Counted from the stretch's first letter, positions 3,114 to 19,615 are shown. The stretch is 64,000 nucleotides of DNA from an uncultured Verrucomicrobiae bacterium (GCA_963707025.1 CAVPOM010000015.1:96001-160000), one strand, 5' to 3'. Program-made: numbers and translations. Notes: a model not told the origin generated them from the letters alone.

Positions 3114-4340
3114 CTAGCGTCCGGCCGCAGAGGTCTTTCCGCAATTCTCCAAAACCACGGCGATGCCTTGCCCGACCCCGATGCACATGGTGCAGAGGGC
3201 GTAGCGTCCGCCGGTTCCGGACAGTTGATGGGCTGCGGTGGTGAGCAGGCGCGCCCCGCTCATCCCCAGGGGATGGCCCAGGGCAATGGCGCCGCCTTGC
3301 GGATTGATGCGCGCATCGTTGTCGGCCAGGCCCAATTGGCGGGAGCAGGCCAGCGCTTGTGCGGCGAAGGCCTCGTTCAACTCAAGGATGGCCATGTCGC
3401 CCAGCGCAAGTCCGAGTCGCTCCAGCAGTTTGCGGGTGGCCGGCACCGGGCCGATCCCCATGATGGTCGGCGCTACTCCGGCGACGGCCGCCCCTAAAAT
3501 GCGCGCGCGCGGAGTCAGTCCATGCCGGGTTACCGCGCTTTCGGAGGCGATCAGCAACGCGGCGGCCCCGTCGTTGATGCCGGAGGCATTGCCGGCGGTG
3601 ACCGTTCCTTGCGGGCGGACGATGGGCTTCAATTGCGAGAGTTTTTCCAGGCTGGTGGCGCGGGGATGTTCGTCCTTCGCCACGAGGATGGGATCCCCTT
3701 TGCGCCGGGGGACCGCGACCGGGATGATTTCCGCGGAGAGACGGCCATCGGCCTGGGCGGCGGCGGTTTTTTCCTGGCTCCACAGGGCGAAGCGATCCTG
3801 GTCTTGCCGGCTGATGGAAAACTGGCCGGCCAGATTTTCCGCCGTTTCCGGCATGGTTTCGATGCCGTAGCGTTCCCGCATCCGTTGATTGACAAACCGC
3901 CAGCCGATGGTGGTATCGTAAATCTCCGGCTGTCGCGCAAACGCGGCCGTGGCCTTGGCCATCACGAAGGGCGCGCGGGACATGCTTTCCACACCGCCGG
4001 CGATGAGAAGCTCGGCCTCTCCCGCGACAATGGCGCGGGCGGCGCCGGCCACGGCTTCCATCCCCGATCCGCACAACCGGTTGACGGTGCAGCCGGAAAC
4101 CGTTTCCGGCAACCCGCAAAGGAGCGCGGCCATGCGCGCGACATTGCGGTTGTCTTCACCCGCCTGGTTGGCGCATCCCAGAATGACGTCATCCACCGCG
4201 GCCCAGTCCACGGCCGGGTTGCGCTCCATGAGCGCTTTGATCGGGAGGGTGGCCAAATCATCCGCCCGGATGGCGGCCAGGGCTTCCCCGTAGCGGCCGA
4301 CCGGGGTGCGGATGGCGTCGCAGATAAAGGCGTGTTTCAT
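3114..4340 (-). CDS. pcaF: 3-oxoadipyl-CoA thiolase-like acetyl-CoA C-acyltransferase (PcaF/PaaJ group)
   Basis: GCANQAGEDNRNVARMA, NRLCGSG, NEAFA, GHPLG, MCIGVGQG motifs; DTTIGWRFVN is typical of PcaF/PaaJ. Confidence 0.9.
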   Translation of the reverse strand: MKHAFICDAIRTPVGRYGEALAAIRADDLATLPIKALMERNPAVDWAAVDDVILGCANQAGEDNRNVARMAALLCGLPETVSGCTVNRLCGSGMEAVAGAARAIVAGEAELLIAGGVESMSRAPFVMAKATAAFARQPEIYDTTIGWRFVNQRMRERYGIETMPETAENLAGQFSISRQDQDRFALWSQEKTAAAQADGRLSAEIIPVAVPRRKGDPILVAKDEHPRATSLEKLSQLKPIVRPQGTVTAGNASGINDGAAALLIASESAVTRHGLTPRARILGAAVAGVAPTIMGIGPVPATRKLLERLGLALGDMAILELNEAFAAQALACSRQLGLADNDARINPQGGAIALGHPLGMSGARLLTTAAHQLSGTGGRYALCTMCIGVGQGIAVVLENCGKTSAAGR

Positions 4341-5695
4341 GCTTTTTTGCCGGTGAGTTGCTCCGCGGCGGCCAGCTCGGCTGGCATCGCTTTGATCTTG
4401 CGGAAACCAGAGAGCAAGACCTCGGTCAGGCGGTCAATTTCCGGCTGGTTCATTGGGGTGGAAAGTGTCCCGGAACAGGTGCTGATCAAAATGATCCCTT
4501 CCTCCAGCGCGTGTTCGATCAGCGCCCGGACCAGCCGGGCCTCCCCGGCGGTGACATAGCTTTCCCGATAGTTTCTCGGAGGCCTGGTCTTCATGTGAAT
4601 GCGGAAAATGGAGCCGCCTCCCGTAACGCACGCCGGAATCCCGGCGCTGCGGATGGCCTCGCCGATTTGACGGCGCGCCACTGCCCCAAGGCGATTGAGG
4701 TTGGCAACTCGTTCGCGGTCGAAGTATTCCATGGCGGCCAGTCCCGCCGTCATCGTGATGGGGTTGGCGGAGAATGTCCCAGAGTGGGGAAAGAGAACCT
4801 TTTCCGCAAGCGGATTAAAAACCTCCATCACCTCCTTGCGGCCGGTGACCGCCCCGACCGGGAAGCCGCCTCCGATCATTTTGCCCAACGCGGTCAGGTC
4901 GGGCCCCTCCGGGAACCACTCCTGTGCCCCCCCATAGGCCGAGCGGTAGGTGATCACTTCGTCGAAAACCAGGAGCGCGCCGTGCTGTTGCGTCCAATTC
5001 CGCAGCGCCTCGATAAACGGCGCCCCCGCCGGGATGAATCCAACCCGATGGGGCATGGGATCCACCAGCACGCAGGCCAGCTCCCCGGCGTGGCGGTCCA
5101 GAATGGCCAGCGCGACTTCCGGATTGTTGAATGGGATGACGATGACCTCATCCAAGGCGGAACGCGGCGTGCCTTGCGCCACCGCAATGCTGCGCGGTTG
5201 TTTGGCCTCGCCCCAATTGGCCGGCTGCGCGGTCTGGCTTACCTCCGCATAATCATACAGACCGTGATAGGCGCCCTCCACCTTGGCGATCTTGGGCCGC
5301 CCCGTGTAGGCGCGCGCCGCCTTGAGGCAGCACATGACAGCCTCCGTGCCTGAATTGACGAAACGGATCTTCTCGAAACCCTTCGTGCGCCGGGTCATGT
5401 GCTCGGCCAGTTCAACTTCAACTTCCGTGGCGAAGGTGTAGCCGGTACCTTTCTGCAATTGCCGGGTCACTGCCTCCACAATCACCGGGTGAGCATGGCC
5501 GTGGATGAGCGAAGCCATGTTGTTGGCGAAGTCAATCCGGCGATGGCCTTCCACGTCGGTCAGATAGCATCCCTCGCCCTTGGACGCGTAGAGCGGATAA
5601 GGACGCCGCAACACCGTGTTGCGGCTCACGCCGCCGGGCAGAACGCCCAGGGCCCGTTCATAAATCTGCCGGCTGCGTGAATAATCGTGCGTCAT
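4337..5695 (-). CDS. Class III PLP aminotransferase (GSA-aminomutase / beta-amino-acid transaminase-like)
   Basis: FVNSGTEA, GAYHG, FDEVIT, LGKMIGGG (PLP Lys), HSGTFSANP; start MTHDYS overlaps the upstream stop (ATGA). Confidence 0.9.
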   Translation of the reverse strand: MTHDYSRSRQIYERALGVLPGGVSRNTVLRRPYPLYASKGEGCYLTDVEGHRRIDFANNMASLIHGHAHPVIVEAVTRQLQKGTGYTFATEVEVELAEHMTRRTKGFEKIRFVNSGTEAVMCCLKAARAYTGRPKIAKVEGAYHGLYDYAEVSQTAQPANWGEAKQPRSIAVAQGTPRSALDEVIVIPFNNPEVALAILDRHAGELACVLVDPMPHRVGFIPAGAPFIEALRNWTQQHGALLVFDEVITYRSAYGGAQEWFPEGPDLTALGKMIGGGFPVGAVTGRKEVMEVFNPLAEKVLFPHSGTFSANPITMTAGLAAMEYFDRERVANLNRLGAVARRQIGEAIRSAGIPACVTGGGSIFRIHMKTRPPRNYRESYVTAGEARLVRALIEHALEEGIILISTCSGTLSTPMNQPEIDRLTEVLLSGFRKIKAMPAELAAAEQLTGKKA

Positions 5696-6411
5696 AGACT
5701 GGGAACGGTTCCCGCCGCCGATCGTTCCGCGAGTGCCGCGGTCCGCCCATCCATCAAGGGTGCGGCGGTCTTTTCCTGCACGGCGCCAAACTCCAGGCCC
5801 GGCGCAATCCTGCGCGCCACCAGCCCGGCGGGGGTCACGTCTATGATGGCCAGGTTGGTGTAGATTCGGTCCACCACGCCTTTGCCGGTCAAGGGATAGG
5901 TGCAGGCGGCCACGATCTTTGGTTCGCCATTTCGGGTGGTGTGTTCGGTCAGGACGAAAATCTTTTTCACCCCCGCCACCAAGTCCATGGCCCCGCCCAC
6001 TGCCGGAATGGCATCGGCGGCGCCGGTGGACCAGTTGGCCAGATCGCCTTGGGCGGAGACTTGCATGGCGCCCAGCACGCAAAGATCAATGTGCCCGCCG
6101 CGAATCATGGCAAAGCTGTCGGCGTGATGAAAATAGGCGGCCCCGGCAATGGCCGTCACCATCTTTTTGCCGGCATTGATCAACTCAGGGTCTTCCTGGC
6201 CGGGCGCCGGCGCCGGTCCCATGCCGAGCAGTCCGTTCTCCGTTTGGAATATCACCTCGCGTCCGGCCGGCACGAATTGGGCCACCAATTCCGGCAGGCC
6301 GATGCCCAGATTCACGCACGCCCCATCCGGAATGTCCTCCGCCACCAGGCGGGCCATTTCCTCCCGGCCCCACTCGGGGCGACATTTGCCGGGTGCCGTT
6401 ACGGGTAGCAT
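5692..6411 (-). CDS. pcaJ: 3-oxoacid CoA-transferase subunit B (PcaJ/ScoB-like)
   Basis: VNLGIGLP, QTENG catalytic Glu, SFAMIRGGHID, PAVGGAMDL. Confidence 0.88.
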   Translation of the reverse strand: MLPVTAPGKCRPEWGREEMARLVAEDIPDGACVNLGIGLPELVAQFVPAGREVIFQTENGLLGMGPAPAPGQEDPELINAGKKMVTAIAGAAYFHHADSFAMIRGGHIDLCVLGAMQVSAQGDLANWSTGAADAIPAVGGAMDLVAGVKKIFVLTEHTTRNGEPKIVAACTYPLTGKGVVDRIYTNLAIIDVTPAGLVARRIAPGLEFGAVQEKTAAPLMDGRTAALAERSAAGTVPSL

Positions 6412-7109
6412 GGGCCCTCCTTGACCAGTTGGGATTCCTGGACCGGGCTGGCTACGACGACCAGACGGCTGACAAAAATTCCGGGTGTGACCACCGTTTC
6501 GGGATCTATTTCACCCGCCTCGACCAACTCCTTGACCTGCGCGATCGCCGTTTTTGCGGCCATGCACATAATGGGGGCAAAATTGCGCGCCGTTTTGTTG
6601 TAAACCAGATTGCCATAGCGATCCGCCCGGGCGGCCTTGACCAGTGCGAAGTCCGCGCACAGGCCATGCTCCATCACATATTCCTGGCCTTGGAATCGGC
6701 GCGATTCCTTGCCGGCCGCCAGCAGTGTGCCGACGGAGGAAGGGGTGTAAAAGGCCGGGATGCCCGCCCCGCCGGCCCGGATGCGTTCGGCCAGGGTTCC
6801 TTGCGGCACCAGCTCCAGCTCGATTTCTCCACGCCGGTAAAGTTCGGGAAAGACCGTCGAATTAGCGCTGCGCGGATAGGAGCAGATCATCTTGCGAACC
6901 TGCCCGTGGGCGATCAACGCCGCCAAGCCCACCCGCCCGCTGCCGGTATTGTTGCTGATCACCGTCAGATGGCGCGCCCCGTGGTCGTACAAGGCGTGAA
7001 TCAGCTCAATCGGGCTGCCAGCTTCGCCAAAGCCGCCAATCATCACCGTCGCCCCATCCGGAATGTCGGCGACGGCGGCGGCCAGCGATTCAACCCGCTT
7101 GTTGATCAT
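6399..7109 (-). CDS. pcaI: 3-oxoacid CoA-transferase subunit A (PcaI/ScoA-like)
   Basis: DGATVMIGGFG, ISNNTG, PQGTLAERIRAGGAGIPAFYT, ARNFAP, TPGIFV. Confidence 0.88.
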   Translation of the reverse strand: MINKRVESLAAAVADIPDGATVMIGGFGEAGSPIELIHALYDHGARHLTVISNNTGSGRVGLAALIAHGQVRKMICSYPRSANSTVFPELYRRGEIELELVPQGTLAERIRAGGAGIPAFYTPSSVGTLLAAGKESRRFQGQEYVMEHGLCADFALVKAARADRYGNLVYNKTARNFAPIMCMAAKTAIAQVKELVEAGEIDPETVVTPGIFVSRLVVVASPVQESQLVKEGPCYP

Positions 7110-8767
7110 CGTCCTGCCTTTGCGGCGTGGGCGGTTGCCCTGGCCCGCCCGGCCCGGGGAAAGTGTTTGCGATGAATGCCGCTCAATTCACTCTCAATCC
7201 CTTTCAACTCGTTTTCGAAAAAGAATTTCGGCGTGTCCAGCGGAACCAGTTTGTCCACCCGCGTTTCCTTCGCGTCGTACTTCGCCAGAAAAACCCGGTC
7301 CATCCAGGCCATGTTGCGGCTTTCGTTGAATTTCAAGGCAAAGACTTTCTCCCCGCCGACTTCGGCGGTGCCCAGAAGGGAGACCTTGCCCGCCGAGCTG
7401 GTCATCGTGATATAGCGCGACGGGCGGTGCAGCGAGGCCAGCGAACGGTAGATGAGGTTGAACACCTTTTCAATATCCGCCAGCGGCGCGGCGAAGTAAT
7501 GTTGCTCGCCGGTGGGGCGCGCGCAGTACATGGCATGAAAACGAACCGAGAGCGCGGCCAGAATGTGGGCCAAATCAATCCAATTCCGCGCCGACCGTTC
7601 CACGTTCACCCGGCCGTTCTTGTCCATGAACAAGCTGACATGGTTCATGATGGGACTTTGGCTGCGCACCACCACGCCGTGGTTTTGCAGCCGGCGCAGG
7701 GCGGCCAGGGTGCTCGGATTGAGCACTTCGCGCGGAGTCGAAAAGTGAGCCATCCAGCAAAGCTGCACCCCGTTGTCGCGGAGCGTATCGAACAAGGCCA
7801 GCATCGGGTCATACTCGTGGCTGAGGATCAGCCCGGGCTGGTAAGTCAGCAGGCGTGAGCCGAGCCGGACGGCCCGGATGTGGAGCAATTCGGGATCTTC
7901 GAGGATGGGCCTCACATATTGGCGCAGGCGTTCCACCGGCAGATAACCCGCGTCCCCCCCGGTGATCAGGATGTCGGTCACCTCCGGATGCGCCCTCAGA
8001 TATTTATGGACCTGGGCGATGTCCTCCTGGATGAACATGTCGTGATCGCCCCGCACCTGCGCATGGCGGAAACAATAGGTGCAATAGGCGAAACAATTCT
8101 GCGTGGTCTGATCGAAAATGAGTTGGCACTGGGGGTATTTGTGCTGGCTGCCATCAAGAATTTCTATGCCCCCTTCTGCCGCCTCCAGCCACGGCTTGTT
8201 CAGCAACTGTTTGCCATCGTGCGGATTAGTCTCCTCCATGTAATCCTCCACCACCTGCTGTCGTTGCTCCTCCGTCCTGGCCGCCACGTAGGCCTCCGTC
8301 ACTTTCTTCCCCATCATGCCCGGCTGGGGGAAGACGAGCTGATACATGGAATCCTGTTCATACTGGTCCCAGTTGATGCTGTTCAAAATGTGCCGGGAGG
8401 CCTTGAACCGATAGACTTCCACGAAAAGCTCCCGTTCCGGGATGTGGCCGGGCTGGATGCCGTTTTTTGCCAGAAGCCTGACCACTTCCCTGAACCCCTC
8501 CAAGCCGGAGTATTGTTCCCGGTCGTGGAAGAGAAAGGGCCGTGATTCGAGAAGCCCGGAGTGCTCCGGGTAGGTGGCCTGCAAACGGCTCAAGACCCCG
8601 GCAGGCAGGAGCCTTTCGGATTGGATGATCTGACGGGTTTCCTCCGGGTAGCCGTAGCGATCCAGCATCTTGGCGACATCGGCTGCCGTCACCGTGTCCG
8701 TGACTTTGGCCGGGATCGTCCCGGCCTTGCGGGAGTCGGATCTGTTTCCGTTCAACGCCATCTTCAT
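7106..8767 (-). CDS. KamA-family radical SAM / PLP 2,3-aminomutase-like protein (553 aa)
   Basis: QHKYP, CFAYCTYCFR (CxxxCxxC plus Arg), DILITGGD, MAHFSTPRE, QSPIM, SSAGKV (candidate PLP Lys). Confidence 0.88.
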   Translation of the reverse strand: MKMALNGNRSDSRKAGTIPAKVTDTVTAADVAKMLDRYGYPEETRQIIQSERLLPAGVLSRLQATYPEHSGLLESRPFLFHDREQYSGLEGFREVVRLLAKNGIQPGHIPERELFVEVYRFKASRHILNSINWDQYEQDSMYQLVFPQPGMMGKKVTEAYVAARTEEQRQQVVEDYMEETNPHDGKQLLNKPWLEAAEGGIEILDGSQHKYPQCQLIFDQTTQNCFAYCTYCFRHAQVRGDHDMFIQEDIAQVHKYLRAHPEVTDILITGGDAGYLPVERLRQYVRPILEDPELLHIRAVRLGSRLLTYQPGLILSHEYDPMLALFDTLRDNGVQLCWMAHFSTPREVLNPSTLAALRRLQNHGVVVRSQSPIMNHVSLFMDKNGRVNVERSARNWIDLAHILAALSVRFHAMYCARPTGEQHYFAAPLADIEKVFNLIYRSLASLHRPSRYITMTSSAGKVSLLGTAEVGGEKVFALKFNESRNMAWMDRVFLAKYDAKETRVDKLVPLDTPKFFFENELKGIESELSGIHRKHFPRAGRARATAHAAKAGR

Positions 8768-9190
8768 AGCTTGTGTTTTGTGTCTGGCAACTGCCCGATT
8801 TTGCTCACGCGGGGCCAGCCGATTTGCCCCGCGGCACTCACCTTGCACGGGGCGGGCGCAGTATCAGGTTGGATCAAATATACGCAGCCTGAGCCGAATC
8901 ACTTGCCCTCGGTTGGCAAAAGCCTACCATTTTTTGGCAGGCCGGAAAATCCTGATTTCAATCCCATTCCCAAGCTCAATCCCAATGCCAATCCCGTTAA
9001 ACTATTCCCCCGGAACGCCGATGATTATCCATGGCGACGACCATCATGGCTCAATGGACCATGTCGTTGCTAAAACAGCGGGCGATATGAACGTTAAAAC
9101 GAGCGAAGAGGGCTTGGGTTCATTGGAACGAAGTGTTTGGACGGTCGAGGCGGTTGCCTCCCGGTGCCGAGAGACTTGCCCATCATTCCC

Positions 9191-10108
9191 ATGAACTCGC
9201 CCAGCCCAACGAGAGACTATCTGGATGACGTGGTGCGAAAGATTCACAATTCGCGTCAAGTCATTCTCAATCCAGCCGAACGCTACTTGAATGGCGTTGC
9301 CAGTCTGCCTCCGGCCCCGATGCTCATGACCGAATTGCTGGCTCTGTTCCAGGACCCTGACCGCGATGTGGACCACGCTGTGGAACTGATCAGTTACGAG
9401 CCTGTCTTAACGGCCCAGATTCTTCGCACCTGCAACAGCGCCTGTTTCGCCGGCGAGCAGCGCCCCGGGGACATCTTTGAGGCCGTTTCCAGAATTGGGT
9501 TTTACCAGGTTTACTCCCTGGTGGTTTCCATTTTTGGCGCCAGGGCAAAATCCATGGAGGGAGCCGACCAGGGGGTGAAGGTGGACGAGTTATGGCGTCA
9601 TTCCGTGGCGGTCGCCGTGTCGGCTGCCGCGGTGGCGGAGGAAACCGGGCAGGCCAAGACGGTCGCTTTCACGGCGGGGTTGTTGCACGACATTGGCAAG
9701 CTGGTGCTGGCTTCGGCTGAGCGCGAGCGTTACGCCCGATTAATTCAAAGCGCGAAAGACCAGGGCCTGGCCTTGAGCGCGTTGGAACGCTCCGCCTTGG
9801 GAACGGACCATGCCGAACTGGGCGGTGAATTGATGAGCCGCTGGAAATTGCCGCCGGATGTCGTCGCCGCCGTCCGCCATCACCACGACCTTGAGGCCCC
9901 GCCGCCCTACGGCGAGTTGACCGCGGCCGTGCAGGTCGGGGACATGATCGGGCATCAACTTTTCGCCGATGATCTGGCCAACACCGCCTTTTTGCCAACC
10001 TCGCCAGCCTCCCTGGAGGCGCTCCAACTCAGTCCCGGCGCAGTTCCCCGCCTCCTGGCCAAAACGCAAGCCGAGATGGAAAAAGTCAAGGGCATGCTGG
10101 AGATATAA
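9191..10108 (+). CDS. HDOD domain signalling protein
   Basis: LPPAP, EPVLTAQILRTCNS, LWRHSVAVA, AGLLHDIGK, DHAELGG..WKLP, HH. Confidence 0.9.
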   Translation: MNSPSPTRDYLDDVVRKIHNSRQVILNPAERYLNGVASLPPAPMLMTELLALFQDPDRDVDHAVELISYEPVLTAQILRTCNSACFAGEQRPGDIFEAVSRIGFYQVYSLVVSIFGARAKSMEGADQGVKVDELWRHSVAVAVSAAAVAEETGQAKTVAFTAGLLHDIGKLVLASAERERYARLIQSAKDQGLALSALERSALGTDHAELGGELMSRWKLPPDVVAAVRHHHDLEAPPPYGELTAAVQVGDMIGHQLFADDLANTAFLPTSPASLEALQLSPGAVPRLLAKTQAEMEKVKGMLEI

Positions 10109-10202: not shown

Positions 10203-10301
10203 ATTGAGAATTGAAAATTGACAATTTGTCATCGGTCATTGCGCGGTCCGGGAGGTGGTTTTCAATTGCCAATGACCAATTTTCAATGATCAATTCTCAA
10301 T
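10203..10301. repeat. AT-rich imperfect inverted repeat built of about 7-bp units
   Basis: ATTGAGAATTGAAAATTGACAATT... pairs imperfectly with ...CAATTTTCAATGATCAATTCTCAAT; lies between convergent genes. Confidence 0.75.
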
Positions 10302-10354
10302 CCGAATCGGCCTTGCTCCAAAAGCAAAATCGGAGGTTATTCTTGCACGCATCC

Positions 10355-11408
10355 TTACCTGGCCCAGCCGCAGGTTTGGGCCAGACAGATCAGGCCGTAG
10401 GCCAGCAGAGCGGTGGCCGGAATGGTCATCACCCAGGCCCATAAGATGCGTTCGACTAATTCCCAGTTCAGGGCATTGAATCGGCGGGCGCAGCCCACAC
10501 CCATGATGGCCGTGGTGATGGAATGGGTGGTGGAGATGGGCAGGCCCAGCTCGCCGGTCACCAGCAGCAGGGTCGCGGCGGTGGTCTCGGCGGCGAAGCC
10601 ATGCACGGGACGCAAACGGACCATTTTGCGGCCCAGCGTTTGAATGATGCGCCAGCCCCCGATGTAGGTGCCCAGGGCCATGGCCAAACCGCAGGACCAT
10701 TTCATCCAGGTTTTGATTTCGAAATCCGGGCAGGAGAGAAAATTCAGCCAATGGGGCAGTTGCCGCAGGCCGCCGTTTCTGCTGGCGACAAAGCAGGCCA
10801 GGGCCACGATGCCCATGGTCTTCTGGCCGTCGGCGAAGCCGTGCGACCAGCCCATGTAGGAAGCGCTGACCAGTTGCAGCTTGCCAAAAAGCGCATCCAC
10901 CAGACGCGGACGCATGGAGCGAATGATGACAAACAGCAGAGTCATGACCAGCATGCCGCCGGCGAACCCGATGAGCGGGGACGCCAGCATGGGCACGACG
11001 ACCTTGTGATAGAAAAGCCGGCCATTTAATCACTTGCCAGTGGTTGTGGGCGGAGGCCAGGGCGGCGCCGATCAGTCCGCCGAAGACCGCATGGCTGGAA
11101 CTGGAAGGCAGTCCAAAATACCAAGTCAGAACGTTCCAGGCGATGCCGGCCAGCATGGCGCAAAAGATGGTGTCGGTGGTGATGAACTGGGAATCCATCA
11201 AATCGGCTCCGATCGTGGTGGCCACGGCCACGCCGCACAGGGCGCCGAGAAAATTGGTGATCGCGCCCAGGGTCACGGCCTGGCGCGGGGTCAGGACCCG
11301 GGTGCCCACCACGGTGGCGATGGCGTTGGCGGCATCGTGAAAGCCGTTGGTGAAGGTGAACCCCAGCACGGTCAGGTTGACCAGCAGGAGGAGAATAACC
11401 GGTTCCAT
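10355..11408 (-). CDS. pit: Inorganic phosphate transporter (PiT family), frameshift near 11015
   Basis: NGFHDAANAIAT, GLPSSSSHA in one frame; HGFADGQKTMG, PISTTH in the next; removing one T from GCTTTTCTAT joins them. Confidence 0.88.
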
Positions 11409-11414
11409 GAGGGC

Positions 11415-12041
11415 CTAGGAATGCTTGAGGACCACATTGTCAACCACGTTTCCGGCGTCGCGGCAGCGGTCCACCACCTTCTCCAGCAACTCGTAAAGAT
11501 CCTTGGCCATGATGACGGTCAAGGTCGGATGGGCCGCGCTGTAGAGTTCGGTCAACAACTGGAGCACCAGCTTGTCGGCTTCGCCTTCGATGGTCTGGAG
11601 CTTTTCATTGGCTTGATTGACCGCTTCAAAATGGGACTCTTCCAGCTCTTTGATCATGAAGGCGACGGTATCGGTGGCTTGCTCGACCAGGGCGATCTGA
11701 CGGGAAAAATCAATGGAACCCAAATGCGGCGCGCAGATCAGATAGCGGCCGGCAAATTTTTCGACCGTCTTGGGCACGCGGTAAAGCGAGCGGGAAATGG
11801 CCTCGATGTCCTCCCGGTCCAGTCCGGTGATGGAGGCGCGGGCCAGCAGTTCGGTGATTTGCACGGTGATCTGTTTGTCCTTGCGGCGGGCGGCGGCGAA
11901 TTGCGCCAGGCTGGCGTCCGGCGCGGCCTTTTGCATGATTTGCTGGAGCGCCTGCACGCTGGCCCGCCCCTCCTCGGCGCTGGCCTGGAGCAGCCGAAAA
12001 AACTGGTCATCCCTGGCAAACCACTTTTGAATGGAAAACAT
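11415..12041 (-). CDS. DUF47 / PhoU-like Pit accessory protein
   Basis: ITGLDREDI, IEGEADKL, KDLYELLEKVVDRCRD; directly upstream of pit. Confidence 0.9.
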   Translation of the reverse strand: MFSIQKWFARDDQFFRLLQASAEEGRASVQALQQIMQKAAPDASLAQFAAARRKDKQITVQITELLARASITGLDREDIEAISRSLYRVPKTVEKFAGRYLICAPHLGSIDFSRQIALVEQATDTVAFMIKELEESHFEAVNQANEKLQTIEGEADKLVLQLLTELYSAAHPTLTVIMAKDLYELLEKVVDRCRDAGNVVDNVVLKHS

Positions 12042-14489: not shown

Positions 14490-15796
14490 GTAGAGTAGGC
14501 GGGGTGCGCATGGCAGCCCCGCCCCTCGTCGAACCGGACGTGCGGCTTTTCCGCATCCGGCTCTCATGCAGTCTGTCGCCTCTGGCATTCACAGGCTGAT
14601 TAACCCCATTCGATTGAGATGTTCATAGAAGCTCATCCCCGCCGGGGGACGATAGCCGCGCTGGCTCCTGCGTTGGAGATGATACGTCAGCCGTTGCCGA
14701 ACGTACGAGTTGATCTGCCGATACGCCTTGCGCGGATACCCCAGACTGAAATACTTCCCCCATCCGCGCAGATGCCGGTTGATCGTCCTGGTCAGTTCGG
14801 GCAGGGGCGTGTGGCACTGTTCCGGCCCGGTCATCCGCCGCAACGCTTCCCGCTCGCGGGCCAATGCTTTGGCCGATGGTTCCAGGTTCAGATACCGGTA
14901 GTTGCCGCCGTGGAGGTCTCGATCAAACCGAAAGGTGTAGCCCAGAAAGTCCAGGCTCGCCTTGGGTTCTTTGAGTTCCACCACCCGCGTCTTTTCCCGG
15001 TTCACCGTCAGGCCCAACCACCCTTCCAGCTTGGCCTCAAGGAAGCCCCGCAGCCGCTGGCTTTGATACCGCGCCAGCACCACAAAATCGTCCGCATACC
15101 GCACCAGCTTGGCTTTGGCCCATTGGGCCGGCCCGTCGGCGCGTTGAAACGCTTTGTCGAACCAGTGCAGGTAGATGTTCGCCAGCAGCGGCGAGATCAC
15201 CCCGCCCTGCGGGGTGCCCCGCTCGTTGCGCTGGACTGTGGGCGACCCTCCCTCCTTCTTCTCCACTACCGGAGCTTGCAGCCACATCCGTATCAGGCGC
15301 AGCACCGCCCGGTCCACCACTCGCATCCGCACACAGGCCATGAGCTTGTCATGCGGAATGGAATCGAAGTAGCCCTTGAGGTCGGCATCATACACCGCGC
15401 AGTATCCGGCCTTCAGATGTTCTTGGATTTCCCGCAACGCCAGATGCGCCGAGCGCCCCGGCCGAAATCCGTAGGAACATTCTTCAAAGTCCGCTTCAAA
15501 GATCGGCTCCAGAATCAGCCATGTGGCCGTCTGGACGACCCGGTCGCGTACCGTCGGAATGCCCAGCGGCCTCAGTTTCCCGTTGGCTTTGGGGATATAC
15601 ATCCGATAAGTTGGCCACCTTCGTTTACGTGTAACGAGGCTCATTTCGGTTCGCTTTCGCTACAGCTCGGCGCGCGCTTCCCGCAGCTTCCGCGCCGGTG
15701 TTGCCACCGCCGCGGTGCGGGTCGCTTCATGTTTCATGGACTCTTACATGGCTCACCTCTCAGTTCGCACGATCAACCAGACTTCGCCTGGCGCAC
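14490..15796 (-). mobile_element. Group II intron, internally deleted
   Basis: 5' GTGCG at 15796; domain V GAGCCGGATGCGGAAAAGCCGCACGTCCGGTTC; domain VI ending CTACTCTAC at 14490; contains an RT ORF. Confidence 0.9.
14589..15644 (-). pseudogene. ltrA: Group II intron reverse transcriptase/maturase, N-terminally truncated, no endonuclease domain
   Basis: [67 protein letters not shown]0 region absent. Confidence 0.88.
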
Positions 15797-16190: not shown

Positions 16191-16787
16191 ATGTCAGTGG
16201 CTCTCGAACCGCTTGCAAAAATTCGGGGCAAGTTGGGAATAACCCAACATGACCTCGCAGAGAAACTCGGAATCTCGCGCCAGCATCTGTCGAAGCTGGA
16301 GAATTCCCCAGGTCCGTTGACTCCAAAACTGGCGCGCCGCGTGGCGGAGGTGTTTCGGAATTTGGGCATGCCACAGGCGGGACCGCGCAGTGGAATTCGA
16401 GCGATTCCAGTTCGATCTTGGGCACAGGCCGGTATTGGAGTTGATTTTGAGGAACTTCCGCTCGATTGGCAAAAGCAAATAGCAACGGATTGTCCCGACG
16501 AACAGGCCTTTGCGGTTGAAATCCAAGGGGATTCAATGGAGCCCAAATACTTGCAGGGAGATATCGCCGTGTTAATGCCGGCTCACCAACCGCGAAATGG
16601 CAGCTTGGTGGTCGCCCGATTAGAGGAGGGAGTTGTGTTCAAAGTGTTCACCGTGCGCGACCAATCGCCGATAAGAATTTGCTCCTTTACGAGTTACAAT
16701 CCAGTATTTCAACCAATTGAGGTGTCGGAGAGCAAGGTCATTTGGAATTATCCGGTGTATCAAATCGTGCGTCAGGTCTGGCGCTGA
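16191..16787 (+). CDS. XRE HTH + S24 peptidase (CI/LexA-like) repressor
   Basis: LGITQHDLAEKLGISRQHLSKLE HTH; AQAG cleavage-like site; GDSMEP Ser and FK Lys. Confidence 0.9.
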   Translation: MSVALEPLAKIRGKLGITQHDLAEKLGISRQHLSKLENSPGPLTPKLARRVAEVFRNLGMPQAGPRSGIRAIPVRSWAQAGIGVDFEELPLDWQKQIATDCPDEQAFAVEIQGDSMEPKYLQGDIAVLMPAHQPRNGSLVVARLEEGVVFKVFTVRDQSPIRICSFTSYNPVFQPIEVSESKVIWNYPVYQIVRQVWR

Positions 16788-16792
16788 ATTGT

Positions 16793-18363
16793 ATGCATCT
16801 CTCAACCCTCCTCGACACACTCGGCTACACCGGTTCTAGAAATTTTCTCCAGCGAGGAACGGCTGCCTTTGATCGTGCGCCGGATATTGGGCATATCCTT
16901 CGGACGGCTGCGCGGCGCCGGGCATGCCGGCTTGAAGGTGTTTATTCGCTGCGTCCATTCAACGACGAAGGATCGCCAGTTCCGGTTGTTTATGTCTGCG
17001 AAGCTGATGACAGCGCAGCAGCGGACAAAATTCATGCCCTTGTCTGGAACCAAGATATCGTTCCCTTCGTCCTTGTTCGTACGCCTGCTGGCTTGCGGCT
17101 TTATTCCGGGTTCGAGTGCAAGCACGCAGGGACTCACGAACGCCAGGGCATCCTCGAACCTTTGATTCAGTTCAATGAAGTTGCCGACCGGCTTGCCGAA
17201 TTCCATGCGAGCGCAATTGATTCCGGAGAACTCTGGCGCAGGCGTGGAGACGACGTTCAGCCCGACAAACGTGTTTATTGGAGCCTGCTGGACAACCTTA
17301 AACAGCTCGCCAAGAAATTCGCTGCCGAGTTCGGAGCAGCAAAGGCGAAAGCGGTTATCCATCCCCTCATCGGGAAATACGTCTATCTCTATTATCTGAA
17401 GGACCGCGGATTTCTCTCTCGGCGGCGGCTGGTGGAATGGGAAATCGAACATGACTCCGTTTACGGTCGCAACGCTACTTTGGCCGGACTTCGTGCCGTC
17501 TGCGGTAAACTGGACGGCTTCCTCAACGGTCGCGTCTTCCCGCTAAAGCTCCATGGCGAAAGCGCGCCTACGGAAGAGCAAATCCAGCGTATTGCTGGGG
17601 CTTTTGCTGGCGATACGTTCGCTGGCAGTTGGCAATTTCATCTTCCATTCACTGCATTCAAGTTCGATTTCATCCCCATCGAGACACTTTCGATGATTTA
17701 CGAGCAGTTCCTCCATCTCCCGGACAAACCTGACGCGGACGACGAGGACGAGCACAGCGAGGGGCGCAAGGCCGGCGCATATTATACGCCCATCCCGGTA
17801 GTCAACTACATGCTCGCCGAAATGGACCGGCGACGGCGCCTTCTGCGTGGTGTCCGAGTGTTCGATCCCAGTTGTGGATCGGGCGCGTTTCTCGTGCAGT
17901 GCTACCGGCGACTTATTGAGCGCGAGTTTATTGCGCACAAAAAGAAGCCTGCTCCGCATGAACTCGCCACGTTGCTGAAGCGCCACATCTTTGGCGTCGA
18001 TATGGATGAGGATGCCTGTAGCGTCGCCGAATTCAGCCTTTATCTGACGCTGCTCGACTACGTGGAACCCAAGGACCTCATTGACCATCCGCGTTTCCGC
18101 CTTCCAACTCTGCGGAAAAACAACATCTTCTGCTCCGACTTCTTCAAGGTGCTGCCTTTCAAGACGAAGTTCCACTGGATTGTAGGAAATCCACCCTGGA
18201 AAAAGCTCATTCCGCATAAATTGGAAAAGCGCGATAAAGGTGCATTGCAATGGATGAAGAAAAACGCCGCCCTTATGCCGGTGGGTGACAATTCTCTTCT
18301 ACAGGCCTTCGCATGGCGCTGCCGCGAGTTTGTGACCGCAGATGGTGGCTGCGCATTGCTTGT
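16793..18363 (+). pseudogene. N6-adenine DNA methyltransferase (gamma class; type IIG/HsdM-like), C-terminally truncated
   Basis: IYEQFL, GAYYTP, DPSCGSGAFL, IFGVD, IVGNPPW; runs into IS3 sequence at about 18364. Confidence 0.88.
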
Positions 18364-18835
18364 CCATCCCAGCACGTAACGACTCCACCAATCCATCACC
18401 GCCACCAAATACATAAACCCAGTTGCCATAGGCACATACGTAATGTCCGAACACCAAACCTGATCCGGTCCCGTCACTGCCAAATTGCGTAACAGATACG
18501 GATAAATCTGGTGCCCCATCTCCCGCAGACTCGTCTTGGGCTTGGCGTAAATCGCCTCGATCCCCATCAACCGCAGCAGCCGCACCACCCGTTTGCGATT
18601 GATGGTCAAACCCTCCCGGCGCAACAGCACGGTCAGTTTGCGGCTGCCATAAACCGGGTGGTCCAAATGCATCTGGTCCAACCGCCGCATCAGCGCCAGG
18701 TTCTCCTCTGTCTCCGGACAGCACTGGTAATAATAACTGCCACGGCACACCGCCAGCAGCTCGCACTGGCGCCGCACGCTGAGCTGCGGATCGGGAGCGA
18801 TTAAACATGTTAAAGCCCCAGTTGCCTGGACTTTT
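18364..18835 (-). pseudogene. IS3 transposase OrfB, truncated within the DDE domain
   Basis: SVRRQCELL, YGSRKL, NRKRVVRLLRLMG, WCSDITY, YLVAVMD; in the -1 frame from AAAAAAAAG (18839-18831). Confidence 0.88.
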
Positions 18836-19100
18836 TTTTAAGCCAGTCCAAGTCCACCGTCAGTTGGCCAATCTTCTCATGCAGTTGGGCAATCAACTGT
18901 TCCTGATCCTCCGTGCGGGGTTGCCCGGGCTCAAACAATTCGGGCATGTGATCCCGAATCGTCGCCCGCCACTGCGTGACCTGCGCCGGATGCACCGCAT
19001 ACTCTCGCGCCAATTGCGCGACCGTCTTCAGCCCCACCAGGGCTTCGAATCCCACTTTGGCCTTGAAGGCCGCACTGTGTCTTTTCCGTTTTGCTTTCAT
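18810..19100 (-). CDS. IS3 transposase OrfA
   Basis: RKRHSAAFKAKV, TVAQLAREYAVHPAQVTQW, IGQLTVDLDWLKKK. Confidence 0.9.
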   Translation of the reverse strand: MKAKRKRHSAAFKAKVGFEALVGLKTVAQLAREYAVHPAQVTQWRATIRDHMPELFEPGQPRTEDQEQLIAQLHEKIGQLTVDLDWLKKKSRQLGL

Positions 19101-19178
19101 AAGTCTGCTCTTTCTTATCTACAGCAAACCGGCAAAAATCGAAACTTACCTGTGGTCTAAAAATAGGGGTCCAGCTCA

Positions 19179-19615
19179 AACTGCCTCTGTCAGAGCAGCC
19201 TCCTGCAAAGCGACGAAAACTGCCCGACTTGAAATTTCGCTACGGAGGGCAGAGAGAGGCTCTCTACTTCCGCTTCGAGGCAAAGAAACTCGCGGGGACT
19301 GGCGACTTTGCCGACCTGATCAGCCACGAGGATGGATTGGGCCGTTTTTTGCGTAGGGTGTATGGCCGCGAGGATGAAGCGGGCGGTTTGCTCGGATACG
19401 TTCAGACCGAATCACCGGAAGAGCACGCAGAGCGCGTGAGGACGGCTTTGGTAACGGACCCGAAGAAATATCGAGTAAGTGCAAACGGGGAGTGGACCGC
19501 CGCGAGTTGGAAGAACGGTCCTAAATGCAGTTTCCGAGCTGTCCATTCACGGGAGTGCGCATCTGTGATTGTGATTTTCTATTCTTTTCTGTCTTTCCGC
19601 CCACTGCTTTATTGA
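19179..19615 (+). pseudogene. C-terminal remnant of a possible PD-(D/E)XK nuclease-like protein
   Basis: PDLKFRY...FRFEAKKL...GLGRF...GGLLGYVQ; no start remains after the IS3 end. Confidence 0.5.

Follow-up and report, generated by a model that had tools for sequence, protein, structure and literature searches.

Lysine 2,3-aminomutase (LAM) carries out a radical 1,2-amino shift on a pyridoxal phosphate (PLP) aldimine, and we follow here the numbering of the Clostridium subterminale structure, PDB entry 2A5H. In this enzyme Asp293 (in YYIYQCD) and Asp330 bind the lysine side-chain amine, while Arg134, which follows the CxxxCxxC cluster motif, binds the carboxylate and Lys337 holds PLP. In the glutamate 2,3-aminomutase (EAM) of C. 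difficile the two aspartate positions are occupied by Lys and Asn. A further enzyme, IdnL4 of the incednine cluster, is described as probably being a glutamate 2,3-aminomutase, a function not proven in vitro (PMC11284099).

The lower beta-ketoadipate pathway is represented by PcaIJ and PcaF. Its substrate, 3-oxoadipate, is the deaminated form of 3-aminoadipate, and 2-aminoadipate is itself made by piperideine-6-carboxylate (P6C) dehydrogenase, from lysine via lysine 6-transaminase. Two described transaminases are also relevant: StoTA (6K8H) is a beta/gamma-amino-acid transaminase with R36 as the proposed binder of the substrate carboxylate (PMC10589169), and Kat of Cloacimonas is a HemL-like enzyme that works on thioesters only (PMC3149608).

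Here, we describe a KamA-like gene and its neighbours in a 64,000-nucleotide stretch of DNA from an uncultured Verrucomicrobiae bacterium (the window). On the basis of its fold, its motifs, the exchanged residues, the family scores and the order and nature of the neighbouring genes, we propose, with a probability of roughly 0.7, that the enzyme turns L-2-aminoadipate into 3-aminoadipate and thereby catalyses the opening step of a predicted five-gene catabolic operon. Searches of the open-access literature, which covered listings and the openings of abstracts, found neither a 2-aminoadipate aminomutase nor 3-aminoadipate described, and the pathway has probably not been described so far.

The aminomutase and its substrate pocket

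The aminomutase was read from the ATG at 8764, giving a protein of 552 aa (Table 1); a GTG at 8848 was rejected as the start, since homologues are about 553 aa long and residues before 25 are poorly conserved. Scans for promoters and terminators gave counts at or below those of shuffled sequence. Homologues are named 'lysine 2,3-aminomutase' in public databases. Species listed with the aminomutase include Shewanella atlantica and Photobacterium atrarenae. Against six KamA-family models the protein scored 47-65 bits and failed every cut-off (199-650), including those of TIGR00238 (63.3 bits, cut-off 199.2), TIGR03820 (59.5 bits, cut-off 525.4) and the glutamate 2,3-aminomutase model TIGR04368 (53.7 bits, cut-off 650). 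The only PDB match by sequence at E < 0.001 was 2A5H, at 18% identity. The same entry was the top structural match of an AlphaFold2 model built from 56 sequences (pLDDT 82, pTM 0.85), with a Foldseek E of 4e-14 and a VIA Z of 26.8 over 332 residues (rmsd 3.8; next entry Z 11.4). As modelled, the protein has the LAM fold, and the radical 1,2-amino shift of LAM is predicted for it as well.

Table 1. Positions in the window of the aminomutase, its key residues and the four genes that follow it
Feature	Position	Strand	Family or structural evidence
KamA-like radical-SAM/PLP 2,3-aminomutase, long form, 552 aa, predicted substrate L-2-aminoadipate	7106..8764	-	
N-terminal extension over LAM, about residues 1-72	8549..8764	-	model alignment, conservation
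CxxxCxxC cluster motif (C224, C228, C231) and R233 (LAM Arg134)	8066..8095	-	
R416 (LAM Asp293 position)	7517..7519	-	
R450 (invariant; LAM Phe327) to T453 (LAM Asp330 position, Thr/Ser always)	7406..7417	-	
K460 (LAM Lys337, PLP, position)	7385..7387	-	
3-oxoacid CoA-transferase subunit A	6399..7109	-	TIGR02429 352 > 128.5
3-oxoacid CoA-transferase subunit B	5692..6411	-	TIGR02428 294 > 243.55
Class III aminotransferase, predicted beta-amino-acid transaminase	4337..5692	-	closest PDB entry 6K8H
3-oxoadipyl-CoA thiolase (PcaF)	3114..4340	-	TIGR02430 682.5 > 597

The register of the pocket rests on three sequence alignments and the fold match. The two C-terminal segments quoted in the original prediction stand where it had placed them in the 552-aa ORF, FHAMYCARPTGEQHYF as residues 409-424 (F409 at 7540-7538) and RYITMTSSAGKV as residues 450-461 (T453 at 7408-7406). 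A gap-free MAFFT alignment sets R416 on D293, T453 on D330 and K460 on K337; when a profile built from long- and short-form relatives is aligned with 2A5H, the family Arg falls on D293, and hhalign against the host genome's own, separate LAM-type protein, which carries both aspartates, likewise puts the Arg at the Asp293 position. R233 is spaced after CxxxCxxC exactly as R134 is in LAM. Over 112 full-length sequences, query included, R416, R450, E420 and K460 are invariant (112/112), as are C224, C228 and C231 (112/112), R233 is kept in 111/112, and position 453 is Ser in 57 and Thr in 55. These results bear out the by-eye reading that an Arg had taken the first Asp position and that no Asp stood at the second, with the carboxylate-binding Arg and the PLP Lys retained. 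Judged from the alignments, the change of Asp293 to Arg and of Asp330 to Thr/Ser is conserved and not due to chance.

A comparable pattern is seen in an EAM-like protein (L164; TIGR04368 592 bits, cut-off 650), which has Lys and Thr at the 293 and 330 positions, i.e., a basic residue followed by a neutral one, as in the Arg and Thr of the aminomutase and as in clostridial EAM. This likeness, along with a sister protein that has the same Arg and lies in a cassette resembling the beta-glutamate cassette of incednine, supports the proposal made at the outset that the substrate side chain is non-basic and probably acidic. In a quick version of the tree, in which long branches meet at the root, the 29 long-form rows make up one side of a branch (SH-aLRT 100), and L164 groups with LAM on a long branch, apart from the long-form family; the Arg/Lys solution may therefore have arisen twice. 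As the defining aspartates are absent and all cut-offs were failed, that of TIGR04368 by far, we file the aminomutase under neither LAM nor EAM, although it would work in the manner of both.

The nearest relatives of the long form belong to a short sister family of about 450 aa, at about 30-35% identity, with the motifs PYYMFxxRDTG and RTxRGPSMS; PYYMFxxRDTG and RTxRGPxMS are absent from the longer aminomutase, which has other motifs. At all short-form loci examined (32/32) an Arg stands at the R416 position, and equivalents of R450 and K460 are also kept. Because this Arg is common to the short sister family, the residue swap cannot separate glutamate from aminoadipate, and an Arg at the 293 position is probably a general sign of an acidic side chain. 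Near the pocket, the long form has H234, H410, S411 and A415 where the short form has W, Y, Y and E, and these smaller residues may enlarge the long-form pocket. The surroundings of the two forms also differ: CoA-transferase, thiolase and P6C dehydrogenase genes were absent within 1.5 kb at 32/32 short-form loci.

One short-form member, on a Streptomyces plasmid, lies in a macrolactam starter cassette (PKS, proline iminopeptidase, aminomutase, PLP enzyme and AMP-binding protein) that resembles the incednine beta-glutamate starter genes. By gene context, IdnL4-type macrolactam enzymes probably belong to the short sister family, which is probably glutamate-type and is possibly a widespread beta-glutamate osmolyte enzyme; it was found in 45/400 Gammaproteobacteria and in 15/201 genomes of the host order. 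No curated cut-off was passed by its members (L135-L163, L048-L050) where tested, and MarR-like and sugar-phosphate-synthase/kinase-like genes recur by eye among their neighbours. A short-form aminomutase on a plasmid of Amycolatopsis sp. AA4 (L167:3984-16188) has catabolic-looking surroundings, including an amino-acid dehydrogenase, CoA ester lyases, MaoC dehydratases and a CoA transferase. Finally, a protein of 608 aa (P0125) branches between the long and short families with pocket motifs of its own, and possibly represents a further substrate class.

The N-terminal extension had been estimated at roughly 100 aa, a figure that has to be lowered where LAM is the comparison: model residues 73-487 align with 2A5H 3-391, an extension of about 70 aa. 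About 100 is nearer to the comparison with the short sister family, whose BLAST matches to the long form have a median start near residue 110 (range 70-120). The model has three confident helices in the extension (residues 27-64), and majority-residue conservation is 0.16 for residues 1-25, 0.57 for 26-50 and 0.75 for 51-75. Modelled alone without an alignment, the N-terminal piece gave a pLDDT of 55, a value too low for searching, and an Atlas search with the extension returned no match at 0.9 or above.

The operon and its distribution

The aminomutase adjoins 3-oxoadipate genes and not those of lysine fermentation, a further difference from LAM. It is followed by CoA-transferase A, CoA-transferase B, the transaminase and the thiolase, with stops overlapping the next starts (ATGA at the junction of aminomutase and CoA-transferase A). 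The thiolase is far below the acetoacetyl-CoA thiolase cut-offs, and the PcaF equivalog model was passed by 6/6 complete thiolases tested from other loci (641-700 bits). Both CoA-transferase subunits pass their models, TIGR02429 and TIGR02428, yet both models cover PcaIJ and acetoacetate transferases. Subunit A has 64% identity with the copy in a complete pca cluster; the operon CoA-transferases have a median of 70% to a Tistrella copy beside pcd as against 62% to the pca-type copy, and among solved structures a ScoA comes closest. The operon shares a PcaF equivalog and a CoA-transferase A likeness with the lower beta-ketoadipate pathway, from which it would differ in being fed by an aminomutase and a transaminase in place of ring-cleavage enzymes.

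The transaminase shares the HemL-like class III fold of StoTA and Kat, and identity as HemL was rejected (TIGR00713 324 bits, cut-off 527.3). It matches 6K8H with an E of 3e-122, its R24 corresponds to StoTA R36 and is kept in 70/70 sequences, and the equivalent of StoTA N70 is present. It differs from StoTA and Kat in its predicted dicarboxylic substrate and in an extra, invariant H215-R216 pair.

Related genes were seen at two plasmid loci. On Tistrella mobilis pTM2 (L180:599-8391), CoA-transferase A/B genes that most resemble the operon type (71% to that of the window) neighbour a P6C dehydrogenase, a DUF1338 gene and GcvA, and tblastn found no aminomutase in 14.7 kb. On a plasmid of Mesorhizobium sp. 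113-3-3 (L182:6157-12080), a third and very distant KamA-like protein, annotated as hypothetical (476 aa, 20% identity), has an Arg at the Asp293 position, and its gene is followed by a ferredoxin, a transaminase (59% to that of the window) and a CoA-transferase subunit; this is a parallel aminomutase/beta-transaminase module.

The distribution of the operon was assessed in 119 sequences, some of them redundant, comprising 38 from GTDB, the best 80 of 355 metagenome loci and the window. Counting only loci with enough DNA after the long-form aminomutase gene, CoA-transferase A was present in 84/96, CoA-transferase B in 74/86, the transaminase in 67/75 and the thiolase in 43/56. The carriers fall in eight named phyla, i.e., Verrucomicrobiota, Bacteroidota, Fidelibacterota (Marinimicrobia), Sumerlaeota, Eisenbacteria, Planctomycetota, Fibrobacterota and Pseudomonadota, and those in the GTDB sample include MAGs of Maribacter, Flavobacterium, Motiliproteus and Halopseudomonas, genera known to be aerobic, so that the route seems not to be restricted to anaerobes. 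The long form was found in 2/201 genomes of the host order, too few to give a presence/absence comparison within the order adequate power, and, among 400 Gammaproteobacteria, in the seed only. Ten metagenome loci with DNA after the aminomutase have a divergent LysR gene and no operon genes. A divergent GcvA-like LysR is the sole companion of the long-form gene at L090, L093, L095-L097, L099, L100, L111-L113 and L128, and four loci (L015, L016, L017 and L038) are without an adjacent thiolase.

Other genes of the window lie beyond the aminomutase. A divergent HDOD-domain gene (9137-10108, + strand) was found by the operon also in the close relatives L019 and L052 only. By eye, a PiT-like phosphate transporter with an apparent frameshift split follows a DUF47-like gene (10290-12041, - strand), a group II intron-type reverse transcriptase ORF lies at 14589-15644 (- strand), and an N-6 DNA methylase-like gene is interrupted by an IS3-like element (16742-19615).

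Possible supply of 2-aminoadipate from lysine

A P6C dehydrogenase gene lies within about 3 kb of the aminomutase in 6/118 loci (L001, L080, L086, L094, L098, where the gene is cut off, and L102), and the complete genes pass the cut-off. Roughly calculated, about 0.2 of 118 loci would be expected to have a single-copy gene of a 4-Mb genome at such a distance. Two of the six loci, L080 and L086, are almost the same; in the tree, which does not include L094 and L098, L001, L080/L086 and L102 sit on separate branches. L001 additionally carries a lysine 6-transaminase. In the Marinimicrobia loci, homoaconitase and a homoisocitrate-dehydrogenase-like gene lie upstream.

Genome-wide, P6C dehydrogenase exceeded its cut-off in 15/37 carriers and reached 613 bits or more in 22/37, and lysine 6-transaminase exceeded its cut-off in 11/37; one or the other was found in 27/37, with one split transaminase counted. 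The other 10/37, all MAGs, had no P6C dehydrogenase at 600 bits or more and no lysine 6-transaminase match; these include four marine gammaproteobacteria, and in two of these MAGs there are partial matches cut off by the contig. Among the other Verrucomicrobiota carriers, lysine 6-transaminase was over the cut-off in 7/7 and P6C dehydrogenase was present in 7/7 (six over the cut-off, one partial), against a background for P6C dehydrogenase of 31/201 genomes in the host order and 13/301 in the phylum; in short-form carriers of the host order it was found in 0/15. As these genomes are related and kin are not independent, we treat the co-occurrence as a trend and not as a statistical result.

The host genome has adjacent lat and pcd genes (G000:C7:263900-266800) with several frameshifts in each, which reflect either local sequence error or decay; frameshifts in lat/pcd were seen in 2/28 other loci tested. 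A full-length HglS, which marks an alternative route via 2-oxoadipate, was present in 1/37 carriers, and eight more had partial HglS-family matches. A search for saccharopine-dehydrogenase domains gave matches in 5/5 carriers lacking pcd, although this is a broad family that matched 3/14 controls too.

Proposed route and competing explanations

A beta-transaminase follows a 2,3-aminomutase and 3-oxoadipate enzymes come last, an arrangement that points to 3-aminoadipate as the intermediate and hence to 2-aminoadipate as the substrate. In the proposed route, lysine would be turned into 2-aminoadipate through lysine 6-transaminase and P6C dehydrogenase, and 2-aminoadipate would form an aldimine with PLP displaced from K460. 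R233 would hold the alpha-carboxylate and R416, perhaps with R450, the side-chain carboxylate, while the 5'-deoxyadenosyl radical would take the C3 hydrogen and the nitrogen would migrate as in LAM. The transaminase would then convert 3-aminoadipate to 3-oxoadipate, the CoA-transferase 3-oxoadipate to 3-oxoadipyl-CoA, and PcaF 3-oxoadipyl-CoA into succinyl-CoA plus acetyl-CoA. Overall, aminoadipate, a 2-oxo acid and CoA would yield succinate, acetyl-CoA and an amino acid, without loss of CO2, formation of NADH or a need for O2.

Several observations count against this route: the short family has the Arg too, which is hence not specific, P6C dehydrogenase adjoins only six of the loci, ten carriers gave no supply-gene match at the thresholds used, the host lat-pcd pair is frameshifted, and there are LysR-only loci and four without an adjacent thiolase. 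Furthermore, the CoA-transferase models are not specific for PcaIJ, the closest structure is a ScoA, and partial HglS-family matches occur.

A different order of steps, in which activation of 3-aminoadipate by the CoA-transferase precedes transamination and the CoA ester is the transaminase substrate, as for Kat of Cloacimonas, would agree with the order of the genes (mutase, CoA-transferase, transaminase, thiolase) and with the HemL-like, thioester-only nature of Kat. However, the transaminase is nearest to enzymes of free beta-amino acids and keeps throughout their proposed Arg for the free carboxylate, and we think this order rather unlikely. It overlaps with the route proposed above, because it alters the middle of the pathway and leaves the assignment of the aminomutase unchanged.

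The aminomutase could instead act on glutamate, with beta-glutamate converted to 3-oxoglutarate and then, by cleavage of the CoA ester or by decarboxylation to acetoacetate, to two acetyl-CoA. The basic/neutral pattern shared with the EAM-like protein, the presence in the nearest sister family of a member in an incednine-like starter cassette, and CoA-transferase models that extend to acetoacetate enzymes would all fit. It is the operon and not the residues that favours aminoadipate over glutamate: the thiolase is PcaF-type and far from the acetoacetyl-CoA thiolases, and the recurring neighbours make aminoadipate. The long form is also set apart by a strongly supported branch and has the smaller near-pocket residues, and glutamate has a shorter route via 2-oxoglutarate. 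We therefore regard glutamate as an unlikely substrate.

Another dicarboxylic alpha-amino acid, e.g., 2-aminopimelate or a substituted aminoadipate, could be degraded to the homologous 3-oxo-diacid, given that the residues indicate an acidic or neutral pocket only, and that several carriers without known aminoadipate-forming genes have BCCT or ABC transporters adjoining the operon. The linkage to P6C dehydrogenase and lysine 6-transaminase and the PcaF equivalog scores speak against this, and its chances appear slim.

The four steps are all reversible in principle, so that succinyl-CoA and acetyl-CoA might be built into 3-aminoadipate as a solute, or further into 2-aminoadipate for lysine synthesis, and the homoaconitase and homoisocitrate-dehydrogenase-like gene beside the Marinimicrobia loci would suit such a direction. 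However, catabolic genes are the more frequent neighbours (lat, pcd, transporters and divergent LysR regulators) and thiolysis is the favoured direction, which makes the reverse reading very improbable. That the enzyme is still a lysine 2,3-aminomutase, with other acids such as the invariant E420 binding the amine, is what the automatic annotations say, but it is hardly credible with both aspartates gone and an Arg at the first, scores that do not exceed 65 bits where the cut-offs are 199-650, a separate LAM-type gene in the host genome, and beta-lysine pathway genes that do not recur among the identified neighbours.

The conversion of 2-aminoadipate to 3-aminoadipate remains our preferred reading. 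We hold with somewhat less assurance, though still as the better-than-even choice, the wider proposal that this is the first 2-aminoadipate 2,3-aminomutase and that it opens an undescribed carbon-conserving lysine route, passed among at least eight phyla, aerobes included, as a compact operon, which would join the aminoadipate branch to the beta-ketoadipate end pathway via 3-aminoadipate. If right, a new substrate would be added to those of the few characterised radical-SAM aminomutases, and all six carbons of aminoadipate would end up in succinyl-CoA and acetyl-CoA with no part played by 2-oxoadipate dehydrogenase, glutaryl-CoA dehydrogenase or oxygen. The proposal would also account for the PcaIJ/PcaF genes found here without aromatic ring-cleavage neighbours, and many 'lysine 2,3-aminomutase' labels would be corrected. 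Furthermore, the family would provide an enzyme source for 3-aminoadipate and a link from lysine to 3-oxoadipate, an adipate precursor.
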